64,000 nucleotides of DNA from a phage. Where the stretch lies: sequence record OZ335963.1. One strand, written 5' to 3'. Every line of letters starts with the position of its first letter. Position 1 is the first letter of the stretch. This document shows, piece by piece, positions 26,427 to 35,327 of the stretch. The notes beneath the pieces were generated by a model. That model did no database searches. It was not told the DNA's origin and saw only the letters and a program-made list of their open reading frames with translations. Both the position numbers and the translations under genes were made by a program.

Positions 26427-28484
26427 CTACATCTTGAACTTTTTAGACATTCCGTTGATGTTAACCAAAGAAGCCAAGATTTGAGAAACTTCGTTTTCCT
26501 CTTCTTTTGATTCTTCTACAAGGAATTGATTAAACCCAGCCATTGGACGAACTTCACCAGTTTCCATTAGATGATCGCCATCATATACCGATTCTTCTAA
26601 TTGTTCAGAAGGAGGAACGATTGTGCCTTCGATTAGATACTTGTTATAAGCAGTTTCTTTCATCATGTACGTGCTCACTTTATTAATCTTCAGCAAAATT
26701 CCACGCGGTAGAATAACTTCAGCTTCTGATGGAAATCCTGATAAATGACCTGGAACGATAACTTTGATTCGCTCAGCCCCTTTAATTACCATACCTACGC
26801 TAGTTTCAGCATCTTCATTAGCATATGCAGAATGACTACCCATATGCATTAAATCTTCAGCATCAACAGAACCTTCTCCTTCACCAGAAAATACTGCGCC
26901 GGAATCATCTAGAGCCATATAGTTTTTACCATGCTCACCGAAGATATTTGGTTTAAGCGATGTTGATACGAAGTTCTTAAAATAGAACATTTTATTTTCA
27001 ATATTATGACGTAAAGTTTTAAAAGTAACTTCTTGCCCACGATAAAGCGTAGTTCCTGGAGGAAGAACTGATCCTTTGGCGAACGCAGAATCCAGCGTCT
27101 CGATGTGTTTAATAGCTCGTTCCATGTATTCTTCACGGGTAGAATCTGGTTTACCCAAGAGGAACGAGTTCATTTCAACATATGAATCTGCACAATAATC
27201 TTCAATTACATCAGACTCAGCCTGAGTTAATCCTTTTGGAGTTACTTCGGTGCTTGCGTATTCATATGCCTGAGCAGCAGATTCATTAATCAATTTATAA
27301 ATGCCATTCATGACAAATTGAATAATAGCTACCTTTTCGTCTGGTGTGGCTTTAGAACCTTTAACTAAATCATTGATAATTTTCTTAATAACATCAAAGC
27401 TATTAGAAATATTAATGTCAGCGAGATCGCTCAAAATTTTATCAGTTTTATAATCAAAAAATTCTTTATTCTTTAAATATTCTTGAGAACCTTGATATGT
27501 TATATCGCTCTGCAGCTTGATAGATGGATCACGTAAACGTGCATGGGCCAATGCAATATGATTTCGGAAGCTTTCTAGTTCATAATCGTTAGATTTAAAA
27601 CGAGAAGCACTTCTCATACCACCGATAGCTCCTTTGCTGAAGTTTGAACCAATCTGAATAACGCCAGAGTTCATTGGTCCTTCTGCTTTATATACCGGAA
27701 CTTTAGATTCAAACTCTTGATATTTCTTAGCGGCGAAGCTATCACCCTGAAGTGAAGCATCAACAGTAGAATATTGAGCTTGCGCTGCTAATCGACGACT
27801 AATTTTAGTTTTCTGAATAACAGCTTGATCCGTGCGCTTATCATTTTCTAAAGCAATAGAAGCAGCAACAGCAACAGCTTTAGGGACAGCATTACCTGTT
27901 TTAACATCTACATACACATCACCAACCTTTGATTCAACTTTTGTGAATAACTCAGTTGAAATAGGAGGTACACCTGGAATGTCTTCTAAATTGGCATTTT
28001 TACGGTAAACCATAATATATGCATACTTTTTATCATAATCCCAGATTTCTTTTAAAAGAACATATCGACCTGCTCCTTTAGTACGTACTAAACGGTCAGC
28101 AATAACTTGCATTTGACGAGCTGCGCCATTTGTTTTACTTTTTAGTACGCGGAATAGGCATGCGTCAATTTTATACTGTTTCATTGTTTGAAGAGCAGTA
28201 TCAAAAACTGCATTAATGACACCAATTGGATTTCCACCCAAGTTTTTAAGCTTAACTAATGATAGTTTCTCATTAACACCTATCATTACGATATGCATCA
28301 TTTTATCGCCTGGCTTAACGTTTTTATTTGTATCACCGCCAGAGGTGTATGTACAAAATCTAAATCCAGGAAGCACGCTTTCTTCACCGGCTTGAATAGC
28401 AAAAATTTGAGGTATTTTATGCTTAGGATTTAAGTTAACAACCGGCGCCGAAGCGCCGTCAAATAATTCTGTAATAAGTTCCAT
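26427..28484 (-). CDS. Alt-like ADP-ribosyltransferase paralog
   Basis: 685-aa ORF; N-terminus MELITELFD and C-terminal ART motifs (YRGQ, FVSTSL, EAEVILPRG) shared with neighbouring alt; central region divergent. Confidence 0.85.
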   Translation of the reverse strand: MELITELFDGASAPVVNLNPKHKIPQIFAIQAGEESVLPGFRFCTYTSGGDTNKNVKPGDKMMHIVMIGVNEKLSLVKLKNLGGNPIGVINAVFDTALQTMKQYKIDACLFRVLKSKTNGAARQMQVIADRLVRTKGAGRYVLLKEIWDYDKKYAYIMVYRKNANLEDIPGVPPISTELFTKVESKVGDVYVDVKTGNAVPKAVAVAASIALENDKRTDQAVIQKTKISRRLAAQAQYSTVDASLQGDSFAAKKYQEFESKVPVYKAEGPMNSGVIQIGSNFSKGAIGGMRSASRFKSNDYELESFRNHIALAHARLRDPSIKLQSDITYQGSQEYLKNKEFFDYKTDKILSDLADINISNSFDVIKKIINDLVKGSKATPDEKVAIIQFVMNGIYKLINESAAQAYEYASTEVTPKGLTQAESDVIEDYCADSYVEMNSFLLGKPDSTREEYMERAIKHIETLDSAFAKGSVLPPGTTLYRGQEVTFKTLRHNIENKMFYFKNFVSTSLKPNIFGEHGKNYMALDDSGAVFSGEGEGSVDAEDLMHMGSHSAYANEDAETSVGMVIKGAERIKVIVPGHLSGFPSEAEVILPRGILLKINKVSTYMMKETAYNKYLIEGTIVPPSEQLEESVYDGDHLMETGEVRPMAGFNQFLVEESKEEENEVSQILASLVNINGMSKKFKM

Positions 28485-28487
28485 GAT

Positions 28488-30584
28488 TTATCCTTGAACG
28501 AACTTGTACGGCATGTTTGTAATATCTATGCAAGACGCAATAATTCCAAGAGATGATTCTACTTTTTGTTTAACATTTGATGAAACAAATGATGCAAAGT
28601 CAACTCTGTCTTCTATTTCAATATCACCTGTCATTGCAACTACTTCACCAGTTTCCATTAGACGGTCACCGTCATAAATTACTGATTCGGTGAGTTCTTC
28701 CGTAGTCATAACTTCAGCTTGAATGAGTTTTGTATTATTAGATGTTGTTCCGTCATTATTAGAAGCATCAGTTATTTTATTAACTTTGACCATCAATCCG
28801 CGTGGTAGAATAACTTCAGCTTCAGTTGCTATTCCGAGACTTCCTGGATATACAACATTAACTTTATGAGCTCCATCAATTGCCCATCCTATTTGAACTT
28901 TAACGTATTCAGGATTTTCTTTATACGCTCTTATTTCGTTTGGATTAATAGTTATTCCTTCTTCATTTTTATCAACTGTTAATTCATTGCGAGCTTCTGG
29001 TTCTAAAAGACCAATACCAGCATGTGTAATTCCAAAACGTCCAAAAATGATAGGAGTTAAAGAAGTAGATACAAAATTTCTGAAATAGAACACTTTATTT
29101 TTAACTAGTGCTTCGTATATAGGAGCAGTCATACTTTGAGCACGATAAACTGTAATGCCTTCTGGTATACGGTCACCATTTTCAAAAGCTGAATCTAAGT
29201 TATTTATAGCAGATTCAATTTCTTTTTCACTCATTACATCATATCGTTCTGGATTGTAGCGGCCTAAAAGAAGATTATTGATGTCAGTATATCCTGATCC
29301 ACAATACTCTCTAATGCCGCGCTTTTGCGATGGAGTATATTTAGAACCATCGCGTGCAATGGTAATATCAATCATTGGACCTGCACCAATTCCAGAAAAG
29401 CTATAAATCATTCGTTTGAGGAATTTAGTTTTTGCTGCGTTCCAGGAATTTTTAGTTATTTCTTCCCAGACTTCATCTGGCTGCCCTTTGCGAGTTTTAT
29501 TATGTTTATCAAGCCATTTATCTTTGTAATCTTCAAAGAATCTATTAACAGCTGCTGCGTATTTCTCTAAACATTTTATTGAAGTAGTTGGTTCATTTTT
29601 AATCGCATTAAGAATTACATCTTTAATCTTTTCAGAAACTTCATTAACCTCACTTTTTGAAAAGAATTTATAGTCATAATGAAGTTCATCTGCAGTTCCT
29701 TCGGCAATAATTTTTGCTGCCTTAGTTTTAGAAGCCAATGAATTAATTCCAAGTTTCATTTCTTCTGCTTCGGGAATTAAAGGAGCGGTAGCAGGTTTAT
29801 TGAAATTAGCTGCAGTAGATTCATACTTTTGGAATAATTCACTTTCAAATCTAGAAGATTCCAATGACTGACTTTGTGCAATTGCTCTACGGGAAATTTT
29901 AACTTTAACGATTACAGCTTGGTCAGAACGTTTATCGTTTTCTTGCGCAATAGATGCTGCAATTGCCTCATTTTTAGTTACTTGAGCTCCAGTATCTTTA
30001 TTGATATAAACATCACCGACCTTCGATTCAACTTTAGTAAAGAGCTCGGTACTAATTTCAGGAACTCCTGGGATGTCTTCTAATGATACATTTTTGCGAT
30101 GTATAAGAATATATGCATACTTTTTATCGTAATCCCAGAGTTCCTTAAGAAGGACGTATCTGCCACCTGAACGACTGCGGATAAGCCTATCAGCAATAAG
30201 TTGAATTTGACGAGCTTGACCAGCAGTTTTAGACTTAAGAATACGGAGCATACAGGCATCAATTTTATACTGACGCATCGTTTGCATTGCAACAGTAAAA
30301 ACTGAATTGATGTAATTAATTGGGCTTGGACCGAGACCTTTTAATTTAGCAATTGAACCTTTAGCAGTTAATGTAAAAGGAACAATATGCATCATTTTAT
30401 CGCCCATCTTTAAATCGCGATTAGTATCACCTCCAGATGTATAAGTACATAAACGAAAACCTGGTTGTTCAATTGCGTCATCAACATGAACTGAAAAAAT
30501 TTGCGGTATTTTCTTCTTTGGATTTAAGTTTGTAATCGGAAGAGTAGTATCTTCGTCAAATAATTCTGTAATGAGTTCCATCAT
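28488..30584 (-). CDS. alt: Alt ADP-ribosyltransferase (capsid-packaged)
   Basis: 698-aa ORF (MMELITELFDEDTTLP...); ART motifs YRAQ, FVSTSL, EAEVILPRG; TATAAATA late promoter upstream; adjacent to gene 30 as in T4. Confidence 0.88.
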   Translation of the reverse strand: MMELITELFDEDTTLPITNLNPKKKIPQIFSVHVDDAIEQPGFRLCTYTSGGDTNRDLKMGDKMMHIVPFTLTAKGSIAKLKGLGPSPINYINSVFTVAMQTMRQYKIDACMLRILKSKTAGQARQIQLIADRLIRSRSGGRYVLLKELWDYDKKYAYILIHRKNVSLEDIPGVPEISTELFTKVESKVGDVYINKDTGAQVTKNEAIAASIAQENDKRSDQAVIVKVKISRRAIAQSQSLESSRFESELFQKYESTAANFNKPATAPLIPEAEEMKLGINSLASKTKAAKIIAEGTADELHYDYKFFSKSEVNEVSEKIKDVILNAIKNEPTTSIKCLEKYAAAVNRFFEDYKDKWLDKHNKTRKGQPDEVWEEITKNSWNAAKTKFLKRMIYSFSGIGAGPMIDITIARDGSKYTPSQKRGIREYCGSGYTDINNLLLGRYNPERYDVMSEKEIESAINNLDSAFENGDRIPEGITVYRAQSMTAPIYEALVKNKVFYFRNFVSTSLTPIIFGRFGITHAGIGLLEPEARNELTVDKNEEGITINPNEIRAYKENPEYVKVQIGWAIDGAHKVNVVYPGSLGIATEAEVILPRGLMVKVNKITDASNNDGTTSNNTKLIQAEVMTTEELTESVIYDGDRLMETGEVVAMTGDIEIEDRVDFASFVSSNVKQKVESSLGIIASCIDITNMPYKFVQG

Positions 30585-30604: not shown

Positions 30605-30612
30605 TATTTATA
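30605..30612 (-). promoter_or_regulatory. Late promoter TATAAATA (minus strand) upstream of alt
   Basis: Plus-strand TATTTATA 21 nt upstream of alt ATG, followed by GAGAGGA Shine-Dalgarno. Confidence 0.6.
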
Positions 30613-30617
30613 AAATT

Positions 30618-30635
30618 AAAGGCCCGAAGGCCTTT
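30618..30635 (-). terminator. Hairpin between gene 30 block and alt late promoter
   Basis: AAAGGCC-CGAA-GGCCTTT. Confidence 0.5.
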
Positions 30636-30822
30636 AATAATCTATTGGTAAGAGAGTACGATATATTTCAAACTTTGGACCTTTTTCATAGGTATCAAAT
30701 GTTTCCGTGAATTTATTATAAGCATATGCATCTACAAATTCAATCATAATTTGTGATACAGAAGTAGAAACATCTCCACCTTCTTTTTGAGCCACGACAA
30801 TTGTTTCTAAGTAAGCTTTCAT
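30634..30822 (-). CDS. Hypothetical small protein
   Basis: 62-aa ORF between gene 30 and alt, overlapping gene 30 stop. Confidence 0.4.
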   Translation of the reverse strand: MKAYLETIVVAQKEGGDVSTSVSQIMIEFVDAYAYNKFTETFDTYEKGPKFEIYRTLLPIDY

Positions 30823-32279
30823 AGACCAGTTACCTCATGAAAATCACCAAATACATCCTCGAATGTATTAGCTTTAGTTTTATCTTCACGTAAACGAATC
30901 GCAATCGGAAGAAATAATTTAACGTAATCAGTGCGGCCATCAGATTTTAACCAACCATTACATTCGCATTCTAGAATTTTTCCAATATAATAATTTTGGT
31001 TTTCCATAATGCGAGTACGGTCAAGTTCATGCGATTTTACGCCGGCTTTATCTTTTAAGCCTGAACCAGCATTTACTTTAATTTTTCCACACTCTGATTC
31101 AAGAATAAATCCACCTGCTTTAGTAGGGTCTTTACGGTGAGGATAAATTCCTACAATTTTTAAATCAACATCAATTACTTCTTTAAATTTATAGAGATTT
31201 TTTGAACGAGCATTTTCCCATAATCCATCGATATTTTTGAGAATAATACCTTCAAGACCTTGGTCAATATACTTTTTATAAATTACCTTAGCTTCATCTA
31301 GGTTATTTACTACCTGGTTTTCAATTAAAATTACTTTATCATATCCTGATGTCATTTGTTCTAGTTTAGAAAAACGTACATCATATTTTAAACGAAACGC
31401 CGGAAGACCGTATATTTCTACCAACGGGACATAATCCCATACCTGAAACTTCATGCATTTGGCTTCTTTTTCAGAAATGGTTCCTTTTAAGGATTTATTG
31501 GCGATTCCATTAGAAGCAGTACGTGATTCAGCTACTTCGGCAAACTCTTTAGCTTTATTGATTTCAGGAGCATCAAAAAGAAAATCTAGGCCTTCTGGCT
31601 CCTTTTCAGCTTGCTCATGGTATACCAATTCGCCATCGATTAACACACCTTCTGGATGAATCTGGCGGGCTTCAGCAGTCATTTTGATTAACTCTTCCTT
31701 AAGAAGATCTAATCCTAGATATTCATTACCAGCTCGTGATAAAAGACGAACATCATCTAATTCATCGCCTCGGACTTCAGCAAAACACCGAGCTCCATCT
31801 GCTTTTAACTGTGCAAAGGCTGGAAACTTGATATTCTTATTAATGCCTTTTTCATCATAAGAACTTGCCAGCATTTGAGGTTGTTCAGGAATTAAACCTG
31901 GCCAAACTTTATTTGCGATAGATACTGAAGCACCGCATTCAAGGTCTCGCATCATAACTCGACGCAAAACTTCAACATCATCTTTTTTACCATCGGTGAT
32001 ATATCCAGTTAATTCCTCAATTGCTGCATTGCCAGTTAATTTCCGAGTAGCTAACGTGAATTCAATGAAGTCCAGCATATCAGTAATAGTCAGCATTCCA
32101 AAACTCTGGGTAGCAATACCAGGCTTAGGCCATTTCTTAATATAATACTGTAACCCACGAGAATAAGTCAGACGATACACTCGTTTAAGCAATTCATTAT
32201 CTTTATTCTTTTCAAGAATTGCTTGCTTCTGCTTAGTTGATCCGATAGATGCTATTTCATTCAGAATTTTAAGAATCAT
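30819..32279 (-). CDS. 30: ATP-dependent DNA ligase
   Basis: 486-aa ORF with adenylation motif KADGAR; matches T4 DNA ligase as remembered. Confidence 0.96.
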   Translation of the reverse strand: MILKILNEIASIGSTKQKQAILEKNKDNELLKRVYRLTYSRGLQYYIKKWPKPGIATQSFGMLTITDMLDFIEFTLATRKLTGNAAIEELTGYITDGKKDDVEVLRRVMMRDLECGASVSIANKVWPGLIPEQPQMLASSYDEKGINKNIKFPAFAQLKADGARCFAEVRGDELDDVRLLSRAGNEYLGLDLLKEELIKMTAEARQIHPEGVLIDGELVYHEQAEKEPEGLDFLFDAPEINKAKEFAEVAESRTASNGIANKSLKGTISEKEAKCMKFQVWDYVPLVEIYGLPAFRLKYDVRFSKLEQMTSGYDKVILIENQVVNNLDEAKVIYKKYIDQGLEGIILKNIDGLWENARSKNLYKFKEVIDVDLKIVGIYPHRKDPTKAGGFILESECGKIKVNAGSGLKDKAGVKSHELDRTRIMENQNYYIGKILECECNGWLKSDGRTDYVKLFLPIAIRLREDKTKANTFEDVFGDFHEVTGL

Positions 32280-32545
32280 TGTTCATCCTTCAGAGTTTGA
32301 TTTACAGCTCTATTATAAATCAATTCATCATTAAGCTCAGGCAAAGACCTATGATATGTAGTTCTAACTTTATTTCCTTGCATCCAGTGCTTAACGTAAA
32401 TGAAACCTTGCTCTACACATTTTTTAAAAATTCGTTCGTCTTTTTGAGCTCGGAATTCTGGATTGCATCTAAAAAATTGATTTACGTGACCGTAATCACG
32501 TGTAGTATTACCTTCATTTTCATAAATAGTGTGAACGACAAACAT
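32276..32545 (-). CDS. Hypothetical protein (30.1-like)
   Basis: 89-aa ORF, translationally coupled. Confidence 0.55.
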   Translation of the reverse strand: MFVVHTIYENEGNTTRDYGHVNQFFRCNPEFRAQKDERIFKKCVEQGFIYVKHWMQGNKVRTTYHRSLPELNDELIYNRAVNQTLKDEQ

Positions 32546-33384
32546 TAGAATGCTCCTTGAAAAATATTGTCACCACTAGTAGGTCTATTATACAAATACT
32601 CTATGCCACCAGGTTTAATGTAGTTCCATGTCTGAAACGGATGTGTCTGATATGGATGATATAGATGATTATATGGATTTAATCCAGGCGTTCTCCAGGT
32701 AGTGTTCCAAGGAAAAGAATCGTTTTTAACCATCTTCTCAATTAAATCTTTTATAGCTTTTTCACTATCAAATCTTTCTTTATTTTCCTTCGGCGAAAAA
32801 AGCTTATTTTCTACATCATTCCATGTATAAACTCGCTGGGCAGTTTTTGGAATATTGTCACGCTCTCCTCGAGCCATCCAATAAACAGGAACATTTAATA
32901 TTTCACTCGCATGATCACAGTGATGAGCGAGATCGTCAATATAACAAATTACGTTATATTTCTCTTTTGCCTTTTTGAACAGCTCTTCTTTTGAAGAATC
33001 ATGACCACACATCATTACTTCTGAAAATGCACCAGGAAAAAGAGCATTCAAATTAAATTGACGATTCAGCAGAGCGTCAATAGAATCACCTAGTGCTGTA
33101 ACAGCTACAAAATTATAATCTTCTTTTAATTTGTTAATTACACACAGGGCATCTTTATATGGAGACAAGTAACGAATAAAATCTGATCGATTGTATTTTT
33201 CAATTAACTTGACACCAAGTTCTTCATCACAATTAAAGAGTTTACCTGGAGAAATAAATTTCTCATCTTGGATCATTTTTAAAATATGTTCTAACGGAAG
33301 ATTATATTTCTGAGCAAAATAAGGAAGACCTGATTGCCAGCTTAAACATACTCCATCAATATCAGTTAAAATAGTAGGCTTCAT
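32545..33384 (-). CDS. HAD-superfamily hydrolase-like protein (30.2-like)
   Basis: 279-aa ORF with N-terminal LTDIDGV (DxDG motif I). Confidence 0.65.
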   Translation of the reverse strand: MKPTILTDIDGVCLSWQSGLPYFAQKYNLPLEHILKMIQDEKFISPGKLFNCDEELGVKLIEKYNRSDFIRYLSPYKDALCVINKLKEDYNFVAVTALGDSIDALLNRQFNLNALFPGAFSEVMMCGHDSSKEELFKKAKEKYNVICYIDDLAHHCDHASEILNVPVYWMARGERDNIPKTAQRVYTWNDVENKLFSPKENKERFDSEKAIKDLIEKMVKNDSFPWNTTWRTPGLNPYNHLYHPYQTHPFQTWNYIKPGGIEYLYNRPTSGDNIFQGAF

Positions 33385-33839
33385 AGAGAGTCTCTTAATA
33401 GGTTTAACACATCAATAAATTCAGCTTCGGTTAGTATTGTATCATCTTTTGTTAGACCACTAGCCATGCTGTGCTTCAAAACTTTTCCTTTCGAGGCTTG
33501 TAACGCATCACGAAAGCCCTTGTTTTGGAACGCTGCTTCAAAATATGCATTTGTGTATAATTCTTTCCACGCTGGAGAGTATCTTGAAAACGGAACTCCA
33601 AGCCAGAAGAGGGTCCCACGGTCCTGAGCTCTAGCATAAGACCTTCCGGCTTGTTGGGCGGCAAGCCCGGATAACCCAAATATACGACGTTGCTGTTCAA
33701 TATTTTTCACTTTACACCCTTGGAGGAATCCTTCGAGACCTCCAAATTGGATACCATCCATAACGAAAGGCCATTGGGCGAAATTGCTTAATGCGCATGA
33801 TGGCCATTTAAAATTGCTTCTTATCTCTAGCTCAGACAT
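33381..33839 (-). CDS. NADAR/YbiA-like domain protein (30.3-like)
   Basis: ORF track opens at TTG; first ATG 33839; motif LSNFAQWPFVMDG...LEGFLQGCK resembles YbiA SNFAAWP...DG...EHYFQAQK. Confidence 0.6.
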   Translation of the reverse strand: MSELEIRSNFKWPSCALSNFAQWPFVMDGIQFGGLEGFLQGCKVKNIEQQRRIFGLSGLAAQQAGRSYARAQDRGTLFWLGVPFSRYSPAWKELYTNAYFEAAFQNKGFRDALQASKGKVLKHSMASGLTKDDTILTEAEFIDVLNLLRDSL

Positions 33840-34038
33840 TTTCAATACTTATAATTTCAACATCAGCCCAATGACCATAGCAAGGAAGACGAAATTCAAC
33901 TGGCCAGTTAGGGTCCTTTTCTAATATAATAGACTCAACTTGTGGTTCTTCATGTTCATCAGTATATGGATTTTTATCTGTTACTTTATATGTGACCTTA
34001 ATGTACTGAATTCCAAAAATCTTATTAATTATATTCAT
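33832..34038 (-). CDS. Hypothetical protein
   Basis: 68-aa ORF in coupled minus-strand array. Confidence 0.45.
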   Translation of the reverse strand: MNIINKIFGIQYIKVTYKVTDKNPYTDEHEEPQVESIILEKDPNWPVEFRLPCYGHWADVEIISIENV

Positions 34039-34232
34039 ACTAATTCCTTTAATCCGTAAATAGGAGATAATTCATCGCCCATACGAAGGTCTTCATTTCC
34101 ATCTACCCAAGAAACAATATAAGCCTCTTTTATTTGAATACCACTCCATTTAAATGGAGGTAGAACCTTAGAAATTAATCCAGGTATACCAACTCCCTTT
34201 AATTCAACAGTTTGACCTAAAAAGAATTTCAT
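34035..34232 (-). CDS. Hypothetical protein
   Basis: 65-aa ORF, coupled. Confidence 0.45.
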   Translation of the reverse strand: MKFFLGQTVELKGVGIPGLISKVLPPFKWSGIQIKEAYIVSWVDGNEDLRMGDELSPIYGLKELV

Positions 34233-34994: not shown

Positions 34995-35327
34995 TTATTT
35001 TACTACTTTCCAATGTTGCATGTCAAGTTTACCAACTTTTTTCATCTTCTCAATTAAGCGTTCGGCACGTTGGCGAGCTGTAACATAATACCATTCACCT
35101 AATTCATTTTGTTCAATTTTTCCAACGATTACTGTATTCAATTCATAAATCCAACCAGTAAAGAAATTATGAACTTGAATTGCAAAGGTGAAATCTGTTC
35201 CCATACCTTCTGTTGTTTCTACTTCAATAATATCACCTTCAACTGCCATTAAGAACCACATAGTTTCATCATATTTACCGTTGAAGCATTTAGTTTTAAC
35301 TGTAGCGTTCAGATTAATCGTTTTCAT
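34995..35327 (-). CDS. Hypothetical protein
   Basis: 110-aa ORF. Confidence 0.55.
   Translation of the reverse strand: MKTINLNATVKTKCFNGKYDETMWFLMAVEGDIIEVETTEGMGTDFTFAIQVHNFFTGWIYELNTVIVGKIEQNELGEWYYVTARQRAERLIEKMKKVGKLDMQHWKVVK

Follow-up and report, generated by a model that had tools for sequence, protein, structure and literature searches.

The analysed window, a 64,000-nt stretch of phage DNA (accession no. OZ335963.1), is Tequatrovirus (T4-like phage) DNA, and its ORF located at positions 33381-33839 (minus strand; 152 aa from the ATG) is adfN (gene 30.3), predicted to encode a minimal phage NADAR with DNA ADP-ribosylglycohydrolase activity. It is very probable that this gene serves as an anti-DarT1 NADAR, that the adjacent gene 30.2 encodes a HAD phosphatase tied to the DNA ligase gene, and that the two Alt genes encoded nearby are neighbors of adfN and 30.2 rather than parts of a writer/eraser module of ADP-ribosylation.

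The translation of the ORF contains the motif ALSNFAQWPFVMDG...LEGFLQGCK, in which the earlier note had recognized a NADAR-like sequence. This reading was borne out by comparison with family models. The gp30.3 protein matches Phage_30_3 (PF08010) over the full model (positions 1-138), scoring 231.6 bits where the gathering threshold is 36 (E=3e-69), and the profile of its family aligns the motif stretch to FSNFAAWPIKVDG...SEHYFQAQK of Escherichia coli YbiA (PDB 2b3w; E=0.0043). The Pfam family NADAR (PF08719) is matched individually by 17 of 42 gp30.3 family members (best E=1.5e-7), while gp30.3 itself gave no direct match to it at E<=1; membership in the NADARs is therefore assigned at the superfamily level, via family, profile and fold. 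The Pfam search proposed in the earlier note thus succeeded for the homologs, in which both NADAR and HAD families were matched, and failed at E<=1 for the two proteins of the window. Single-sequence searches of gp30.3 and gp30.2 against PDB sequences likewise returned noise only, and family profiles were required.

The comparison with YbiA at the structural level, also suggested in the earlier note, placed gp30.3 among the NADARs. The AF2 model of the protein (pLDDT 93.2) has as its top three PDB fold matches the NADARs 2b3w, 8bat and 8bau, the last being the structure of a P. nicotianae NADAR (Foldseek probabilities 0.99-1.0), and all remaining PDB matches have E>3. The best match is YbiA (E=8e-5, TM 0.68). 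The protein is equal in length to gp30.3 of T4, with which it shares 148 of 152 residues (97% identity). The four differences (K11/R, I47/V, F104/I and M125/I) do not fall at known catalytic positions, and residues E36, K43 and H123 are invariant in an alignment of 42 homologs, H123 being the sole invariant His of the family. The C-terminal helix (residues 138-151) is intact in the full 152-aa protein. Given this near-identity and the retained catalytic residues, the ORF is assigned the predicted function of the T4 enzyme, the NADAR-family ADP-ribosylglycohydrolase AdfN. An internal out-of-frame ORF of 74 aa, located within adfN (33476-33700, minus strand), is annotated in T4 too, as 30.3'.

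The T4 protein has been the subject of several studies. Its placement in the "phage NADAR" class dates from 2012; in 2024 it was found to release ADP-ribose from guanine in vitro, and in 2025 it received the name AdfN. AdfN constitutes a T-even counter-defence against DarTG1 (PMC11825919, PMC11125620, PMC11543638); it is required for resistance to this system, suffices for it, and takes ADP-ribose off DNA in vitro, while mutagenesis demonstrated the role of E36 and K43, since the substitutions E36A and K43A weaken the protein (PMC11825919). The allele of RB69, which is 15 residues shorter at the C-terminal helix, is defective (PMC11825919). The adduct on which the T4 NADAR acts is ADP-ribosyl-guanine; it is inactive on those of thymine and cytosine (PMC11125620, PMC12945103). 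The catalytic position that distinguishes the NADAR classes is occupied by His in phage NADARs, by Glu in the YbiA type and by Asp in the DarG1 type, and we equate H123 with this position on the basis of the literature (PMC11125620). The T4 enzyme does not rescue uninfected E. coli from DarT1 toxicity (PMC11825919, PMC11125620), and, according to Johannesman et al., AdfN(T4) requires an unknown Tevenvirinae factor (PMC11825919). The role in counter-defence against DarT toxins, suggested for the ORF from its sequence, thus agrees with the published experiments on its T4 ortholog.

By analogy with T4, the following course of events may be proposed. Upon infection of a host carrying DarTG1, DarT1 would place ADP-ribose on guanine of the phage DNA, which would block replication; AdfN would then hydrolyze the guanine-ADP-ribose bond, and replication would be restored. 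The phage protein would in this way act as an orphan copy of the host antitoxin DarG1. From each of the NADAR families, representatives reportedly take guanine-ADP-ribose off RNA in addition to DNA (PMC12945103), and in Caulobacter and Ralstonia phages a NADAR gene lies beside genes for an RNA ligase, tRNAs and an "RNA-binding protein", so the main natural substrate of AdfN might be ADP-ribosylated RNA or the guanine adducts of other toxins, with DarTG1 as one of several targets. We consider this unlikely, since the DarTG1 phenotype of gene 30.3 (see below) is strong and specific, no RNA-directed phenotype of AdfN has been reported, and our analysis of neighboring genes revealed no recurrent RNA-repair partner.

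The genes surrounding adfN form a tightly packed string on the minus strand. The stop codon of gene 30.4 (33832-34038; 68 aa; phrog_2042, E=4e-35) overlaps the start of adfN by 8 nt (ATGTCTGA, 33832-33839); the stop of adfN overlaps the start of gene 30.2 (32545-33384; 279 aa) within an ATGA sequence (33381-33384); and 30.2 overlaps gene 30.1 (32276-32545; DUF3045, PF11243, E=1.6e-63) as TAATG. These are followed by gene 30, encoding the ATP-dependent DNA ligase (30819-32279; PF01068, E=2e-32), and by the last gene of the operon, named alt.1 in the T4 annotation (30634-30822; PF24647, E=6.5e-29). Both the order 30.4, 30.3, 30.2 and the overlaps match those of T4. We take the six genes from 30.4 to alt.1 to constitute one unit, putatively of early/middle timing. 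A sigma-70-like sequence (TTGACA-18-TAAAAT, 11/12 matches; 34997-35026, minus strand) may possibly mark the start of a unit extending from 30.7 to alt.1, although it comes from a consensus scan that was uninformative overall (37 sites, compared with 38.8 expected from shuffled sequences). The earlier note had described the NADAR-like and HAD-type ORFs as translationally coupled, and the ATGA signature of such coupling is indeed present. This overlap has been kept in T-even phages and in the Acinetobacter-phage lineages, and its conservation argues that the co-expression of 30.3 and 30.2 is real, even without a visible functional link between their products.

The contribution of the individual genes to DarTG1 resistance can be judged from a published transposon screen of T4 (HIDEN-SEQ), which employed one DarTG1 system and one host. 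In the absence of DarTG1, gene 30.3 is dispensable (27 of 28 TA sites hit), while under DarTG1 selection insertions in it are depleted (log2FC -7.25). Insertions in 30.2 (71 TA sites; log2FC -0.12, p=0.61) and in alt (log2FC -0.01) are neutral under the same selection; against other ADP-ribosylating toxins a role of 30.2 or alt is conceivable, as the screen covered this one system in one host. The only other gene significantly affected is 30.4 (log2FC -1.79, padj 0.014). The authors of the screen, who argue against widespread polar effects, left this result undiscussed.

The 30.4 phenotype is relevant to the identity of the T-even factor that potentiates AdfN. As the sole further gene depleted under DarTG1 in a screen whose authors argue against widespread polarity, 30.4 could encode a genuine co-factor of AdfN, possibly the T-even-specific factor needed for full activity of AdfN(T4). 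Members of the 30.4 family were found only in the T4-like locus group and in the group of 86% identity (13 loci); if the latter group is RB69-like, as we presume, this range coincides with the set of phages where AdfN(T4) is fully functional. Several observations nevertheless make a co-factor role quite unlikely. The ATG of adfN, overlapped by the 30.4 stop, is not preceded by a Shine-Dalgarno-like sequence, and since the transposon contributes stop codons in every frame, the translation of adfN should be lowered by insertions in 30.4. Moreover, the depletion of 30.4 is partial, and NADAR genes occur without 30.4 in more distant phages. Lost translational coupling into adfN is a simpler and more likely explanation of the phenotype.

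The product of gene 30.2, which begins with MKPTILTDIDGV, is 96-97% identical to gp30.2 of T4 and matches phrog_420 (E=1.4e-92); like the matches of gp30.3, these speak against a chance reading frame. The earlier note had described it as HAD-like; the fold and the four catalytic motifs of this superfamily are both present. In the HAD Rossmannoid core of the protein (residues 1 to approximately 195), a helical cap is inserted behind motif I; a helix (residues 198-220) and a disordered tail follow the core. The motifs DxDx(T/V), T/S, K and DD correspond to D8-I-D10-G-V, T96, K132 and D150-D151, respectively, and their residues are invariant or nearly so among 37 homologs. No Pfam HAD family was matched by gp30.2 itself at E<=1; of its 37 homologs, 9 matched PF00702, 7 matched PF06941 and 6 matched PF13419 (best E about 1e-4). 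The family appears closest to the 5'(3')-deoxyribonucleotidases (Pfam NT5C, PF06941; e.g. PDB 2jao, 6g2n and 3bwv), although its sequence matches to NT5C are marginal (E from 0.026, obtained with the gp30.2 profile against 2jao, to 1e-4). It differs from NT5C in having the additional helix and a disordered Pro/Tyr/Trp-rich tail, which ends in a conserved GIEYL..QPT motif. From the four intact motifs we infer that gp30.2 is probably a Mg-dependent HAD-type phosphomonoesterase; that its substrate is a (deoxy)nucleotide is a guess. We found no literature on the function of this protein.

We also examined how consistently these genes occur together in other phages. A gp30.2-family gene was found within 10 kb of a NADAR gene in 8 of 51 de-replicated viral clusters, in 4 of them directly adjacent, and adjacency was seen in both Tevenvirinae and Twarogvirinae. 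In all 28 de-replicated viral clusters the HAD gene is immediately followed downstream by the ligase gene, and in 25 of them Alt is encoded no more than 6 kb from the HAD gene. The constant partner of gp30.2 is thus the adjoining downstream DNA ligase gene rather than NADAR. In phages of the genera Tulanevirus and Schizotequatrovirus, the NADAR gene is located elsewhere in the genome and the HAD, ligase and Alt genes are still together. An Alt-like ADP-ribosyltransferase (ART) is encoded near NADAR in only about 20 of 90 loci (6-10 kb flanks; not de-replicated), and all of these are in the 30.2-ligase block of Straboviridae. Outside this family, clustering of the same-strand ORFs within 4 kb revealed no recurrent neighbor of NADAR. 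A HAD-like gene is present 1.2 kb upstream of NADAR in Vibrio phage 2.058.O; it showed no relationship to gp30.2 by tblastn or profile comparison and was therefore not counted as conserved linkage. The 153-aa "hydrolase" that Aeromonas phage AS-sw encodes between its gp30.2 and ligase genes is not a NADAR.

The translational coupling of 30.3 and 30.2, their adjacency in two subfamilies and the Tevenvirinae factor required by AdfN(T4) might together suggest that gp30.2 is an accessory protein of AdfN, i.e. either the missing factor or a phosphatase acting on products derived from ADP-ribose. This is very improbable: insertions in 30.2 caused no change in fitness in the DarTG1 screen, 43 of the 51 NADAR clusters lack a gp30.2-family gene within 10 kb, and gp30.2 is always linked to ligase instead. 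As the potentiating factor of AdfN, in particular, we reject gp30.2 because of the neutrality of 30.2 in the DarTG1 screen. This uncharacterized, phosphatase-like protein is near-universal in Straboviridae, and its constant place directly upstream of the ligase gene offers a concrete lead to its role.

Downstream of alt.1 the window encodes two Alt-type ARTs, also on the minus strand: paralog A (28488-30584; 698 aa; PF03496, E=1.4e-37), which is 70% identical to T4 Alt, and paralog B (26427-28484; 685 aa; PF03496, E=3e-20), which shows at its N-terminus 94-98% identity with the alt.-1/alt.-2 fragments of T4. Folding and motif matching identified a predicted operon boundary upstream of alt (30605-30635, minus strand), composed of a hairpin (AAAGGCC-TTCG-GGCCTTT, 30618-30635; -14.2 kcal/mol, z=-3.3) and, between the hairpin and alt, a T4 late-promoter box (TATAAATA, 30605-30612). 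A simple terminator scan made no call at this site; the hairpin was recognized by folding and from the annotation of the close relative KAW1E185, in which the arrangement is identical and a terminator is annotated at the hairpin. T4 has nearly the same arrangement, except that 5 nt are inserted at the late-promoter box. Since the hairpin and then the late promoter separate alt.1 from alt, the latter probably constitutes a late transcription unit of its own. The earlier note had placed all of these genes in one minus-strand block: they do share a strand, and their positions on the two sides of the ligase gene are as described, but the block is split by this boundary before alt. That adfN, the HAD gene and the alt genes lie close together is explained by the T-even gene order, in which a packed 30.x string is followed by alt genes that probably have a promoter of their own.

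Alt is an arginine-specific protein ART and, according to the T4 annotation, is carried within the capsid and delivered along with the DNA. The earlier note proposed that the NADAR, the HAD enzyme and the two Alts form a writer/eraser neighborhood. In a functional set of this kind, AdfN would erase or limit ADP-ribosylation by Alt, and the HAD enzyme would process the products. All of the genes are indeed located on one strand within 7.5 kb, the HAD, ligase and Alt genes are syntenic across Straboviridae, and 30.3 and 30.2 overlap. Such a set is extremely improbable nonetheless, and for DarTG1 it is already largely refuted by the neutrality of insertions in alt and 30.2. Among the 90 NADAR-centered loci no conserved linkage of writer and eraser across lineages was found; NADAR is seldom near the HAD gene and lies apart from an intact HAD-ligase-Alt block in two genera. 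Co-transcription is likewise not indicated, as the hairpin and the late-promoter box would place alt in a different unit from adfN. The proposal that the NADAR controls the ARTs of the phage itself fared no better: gene 30.3 is dispensable without DarTG1, therefore AdfN is not an antidote to these enzymes, and in published tests the T4 NADAR is active on ADP-ribosyl-guanine, and not on thymine or cytosine adducts, whereas Alt targets arginine.

The identification of gp30.3 as a NADAR was therefore correct but already known. Publications from 2012 to 2026 described the fold, the chemistry and the anti-DarTG1 role of T4 adfN, of which this gene is nearly an identical copy, and its discovery value is small. 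A short motif nevertheless led a reader provided with the sequence only to the correct function.

Among the known systems, T4 AdfN is the closest to gp30.3: residues E36, K43 and H123, the C-terminal helix and the flanking genes are all kept. The locus differs from that of T4 in carrying a second intact Alt paralog, of which T4 has fragments only. With DarG1, the BC4488-type NADAR of DarTG1 (e.g. the G. lovleyi NADAR, PDB 8bat), gp30.3 shares the fold (Foldseek probability 1.0), and the T4-type enzyme shares with it the hydrolysis of guanine-ADP-ribose and the product of DarT1 as a target (PMC11543638, PMC11825919). In contrast to DarG1, gp30.3 lacks an N-terminal extension, has His in place of Asp, and is not accompanied by a DarT gene. 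The N-terminal motif SNFA.WP..DG...E..Q..K is common to gp30.3 and E. coli YbiA (PDB 2b3w), which are 17% identical and differ in that YbiA has Glu at the position of the His; the substrates of YbiA-type NADARs also include cytosine-ADP-ribose, on which the T4 enzyme is inactive (PMC12945103).

Two further T4 proteins take part in the same arms race. AdfM (Tk.4), a macrodomain protein directed against DarTG2, is, like AdfN, an orphan antitoxin-like hydrolase, but it counters a thymine-modifying system and is unrelated to AdfN in fold and genome position. Instead of acting enzymatically, AdfA (gp61.2), which is likewise of unrelated fold and encoded elsewhere in the genome, reportedly associates with DarT1, as seen by bacterial two-hybrid assay (PMC11825919).

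The window originates from a Tequatrovirus. Its region 32200-34100 shares 97.5% identity with Escherichia phage vB_EcoM_KAW1E185, and hundreds of T4-like phages also match. The minus-strand gene order is 30.7, 30.6, 30.5, 30.4, 30.3, 30.2, 30.1, 30 (DNA ligase; 30819-32279), alt.1 and two alt paralogues, in agreement with the annotated T4 map. Both ORFs singled out in the earlier note, as well as their overlap, were confirmed from the sequence: gene 30.3 (adfN; 33381-33839, minus strand) encodes 152 aa (148/152 identical to the T4 protein) and gene 30.2 (32545-33384, minus strand) encodes 279 aa (269/279 identical). They overlap by ATGA, 30.2 and 30.1 overlap by TAATG, and 30.4 (33832-34038, minus strand) runs 8 nt into adfN, its stop codon overlapping the start of that gene (ATGTCTGA). 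An out-of-frame ORF of 74 aa inside adfN (33476-33700, minus strand) corresponds to T4 30.3', annotated as "internal translation in a different frame". The product of alt.1 (30634-30822, minus strand; 62 aa), only a "conserved hypothetical protein" in the T4 record, matches Pfam PF24647 "Phage blade protein" (E=6.5e-29).

The predicted placement of gp30.3 with the NADAR proteins holds on three independent lines: the Pfam matches of its homologues, the family profile and the modelled fold. The protein itself matches Pfam Phage_30_3 (PF08010; E=3e-69); a direct match to the Pfam NADAR domain was sought with its own sequence and not found, and it was the family that provided it, since 17 of 42 homologues individually match PF08719 (best E=1.5e-7). 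The family profile matches Escherichia coli YbiA (2b3w; E=0.0043), exactly over the motif originally recognized by eye. The AlphaFold2 model (pLDDT 93.2) has a NADAR fold with an intact C-terminal helix, and its only three meaningful PDB matches are (i) YbiA, (ii) a DarG1-type NADAR of Geobacter lovleyi and (iii) a Phytophthora NADAR. Residues E36, K43 and H123 are invariant among the 42 homologues, at identities down to 35%.

This gene and its anti-DarT role are already known. According to articles citing their work (PMC11543638, PMC11125620), de Souza and Aravind (2012) described the gp30.3 proteins as "phage NADARs", which share a signature histidine. In vitro, the T4 protein cleaves ADP-ribose off guanine but not off thymine (PMC11125620), and is inactive on cytosine-linked ADP-ribose (PMC12945103). 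Johannesman et al. (Nat Commun 2025; PMC11825919) introduced the name AdfN and showed it to be both necessary and sufficient for T-even phages to resist DarTG1; its activity was weakened by E36A and by K43A, and the RB69 allele, which lacks the last helix, was defective. In the T4 transposon screen, 30.3 insertions were lost under DarTG1 (log2FC -7.25), the gene being dispensable in its absence. Given this published work, the proposed use of a NADAR eraser as counter-defence against DarT is correct and established.

Full activity of AdfN(T4) reportedly requires an unknown T-even factor (PMC11825919). Gene 30.2 is excluded as this factor by the transposon data, being neutral under DarTG1 (log2FC -0.12, p=0.61). 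Gene 30.4, which the authors of the screen do not discuss, was partly but significantly depleted (log2FC -1.79, padj 0.014). It is the sole significant gene besides adfN, which would fit a co-factor role of gp30.4; we nevertheless consider such a role improbable, because the depletion is explained more simply by uncoupled translation of adfN. No obvious Shine-Dalgarno-like sequence precedes the adfN ATG, the 30.4 stop codon overlaps it, and every reading frame of the transposon contains stop codons. A polar effect on adfN is thus the simpler explanation.

The HAD assignment of gp30.2 was borne out by its family: all four HAD motifs (D8xD10GV, T96, K132 and D150D151) are conserved among 37 aligned homologues. 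A Pfam search with gp30.2 itself gave no match; 7 of the 37 homologues match Pfam NT5C. The best PDB sequence match of the family profile is a 5'(3')-deoxyribonucleotidase (E=0.026). Having an Asp at motif I +2 and a helical cap, gp30.2 is a putative small-molecule phosphomonoesterase; a literature search for the function of gp30.2 found nothing. In the model, residues 1-220 form a confident core and the tail is disordered. This C-terminal part of gp30.2 (approximately 80 residues; 32545-32790, minus strand) has many Pro, Tyr, Trp and Asn residues. It ends in G-(I/T)-E-Y-(L/W)-x-x-(Q/R)-P-T, which recurs in several database homologues and might serve as a short linear interaction motif; in many other homologues the tail is missing altogether.

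Both the NADAR and the gp30.2 family are represented in some 1,500 phage records, for the most part from Straboviridae. Our NADAR-centred sample (80 IMG/VR loci plus phage loci, 90 loci in all) was de-replicated at 90% identity into 57 clusters, 51 of which extend at least 3 kb beyond the gene on either side. A gp30.2-family gene lies within 10 kb of NADAR in 8 of these 51 clusters and adjacent to it in 4. NADAR sits elsewhere in the genome in Tulanevirus and Schizotequatrovirus phages, and stands alone in Caulobacter, Rhizobium, Ralstonia and Vibrio phages that do not belong to Straboviridae. When same-strand ORFs within 4 kb were clustered, no neighbour recurred outside Straboviridae. In 28 de-replicated HAD-centred viral clusters (loci L094-L154; HAD proteins 35-99% identical to gp30.2), DNA ligase is directly downstream of the HAD gene in all 28, an Alt-like gene lies within 6 kb in 25, and NADAR does so in 11. 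HAD-ligase(-Alt) is therefore an old Straboviridae synteny, and NADAR is a floating orphan gene, placed by this block in T-evens by happenstance. Gene 30.2 is linked much more tightly to ligase than to NADAR, and its constant position upstream suggests a ligase-related role. Two unrelated non-Straboviridae phages, Caulobacter phage CcrColossus (L007, 6001-7956) and Ralstonia phage RSP15 (L010, 5995-8123), carry a gp30.3-type NADAR in an RNA context, beside an RNA ligase or beside an "RNA-binding protein" inside a tRNA gene array. No neighbour recurred over the full set of loci, but since NADARs are reported to act on guanine-ADP-ribosylated RNA, this context may still merit attention.

Both Alt paralogues contain the ADP-ribosyltransferase domain PF03496. 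The second (26427-28484, minus strand) is intact (685 aa). Over its N-terminal ~116 residues it shares 94-98% identity with the T4 alt.-1 and alt.-2 fragments, which are therefore its remnants. KAW1E185, the closest relative, has one alt only; two or three are present in some IMG/VR contigs. According to the T4 record, Alt is packaged in the capsid.

The earlier note had grouped NADAR, HAD and Alt as a possible ADP-ribosylation writer/eraser neighbourhood. A meaningful module of this kind is unsupported: (i) alt, like 30.2, is neutral under DarTG1 in the transposon screen (log2FC -0.01), (ii) the HAD gene keeps company with ligase rather than with NADAR, (iii) in published tests the T4 NADAR acts on guanine, not thymine or cytosine, and Alt modifies protein arginine, and (iv) alt is probably parted from alt.1 in transcription. 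After a predicted stable hairpin between them (-14.2 kcal/mol, z=-3.3; annotated as a terminator in KAW1E185) come, before alt, the T4 late-promoter box TATAAATA and a ribosome-binding site of good quality. The window contains 19 copies of this box, compared with an expectation of 8.6 from shuffled sequences, and 0 of 100 shuffles had as many. The copies lie mostly on the plus strand within the first 20 kb, as would fit a cluster of late structural genes in that part. The alt.1-alt gap of T4 is nearly identical to that of the window, but T4 has 5 nt inserted at the late-promoter box.
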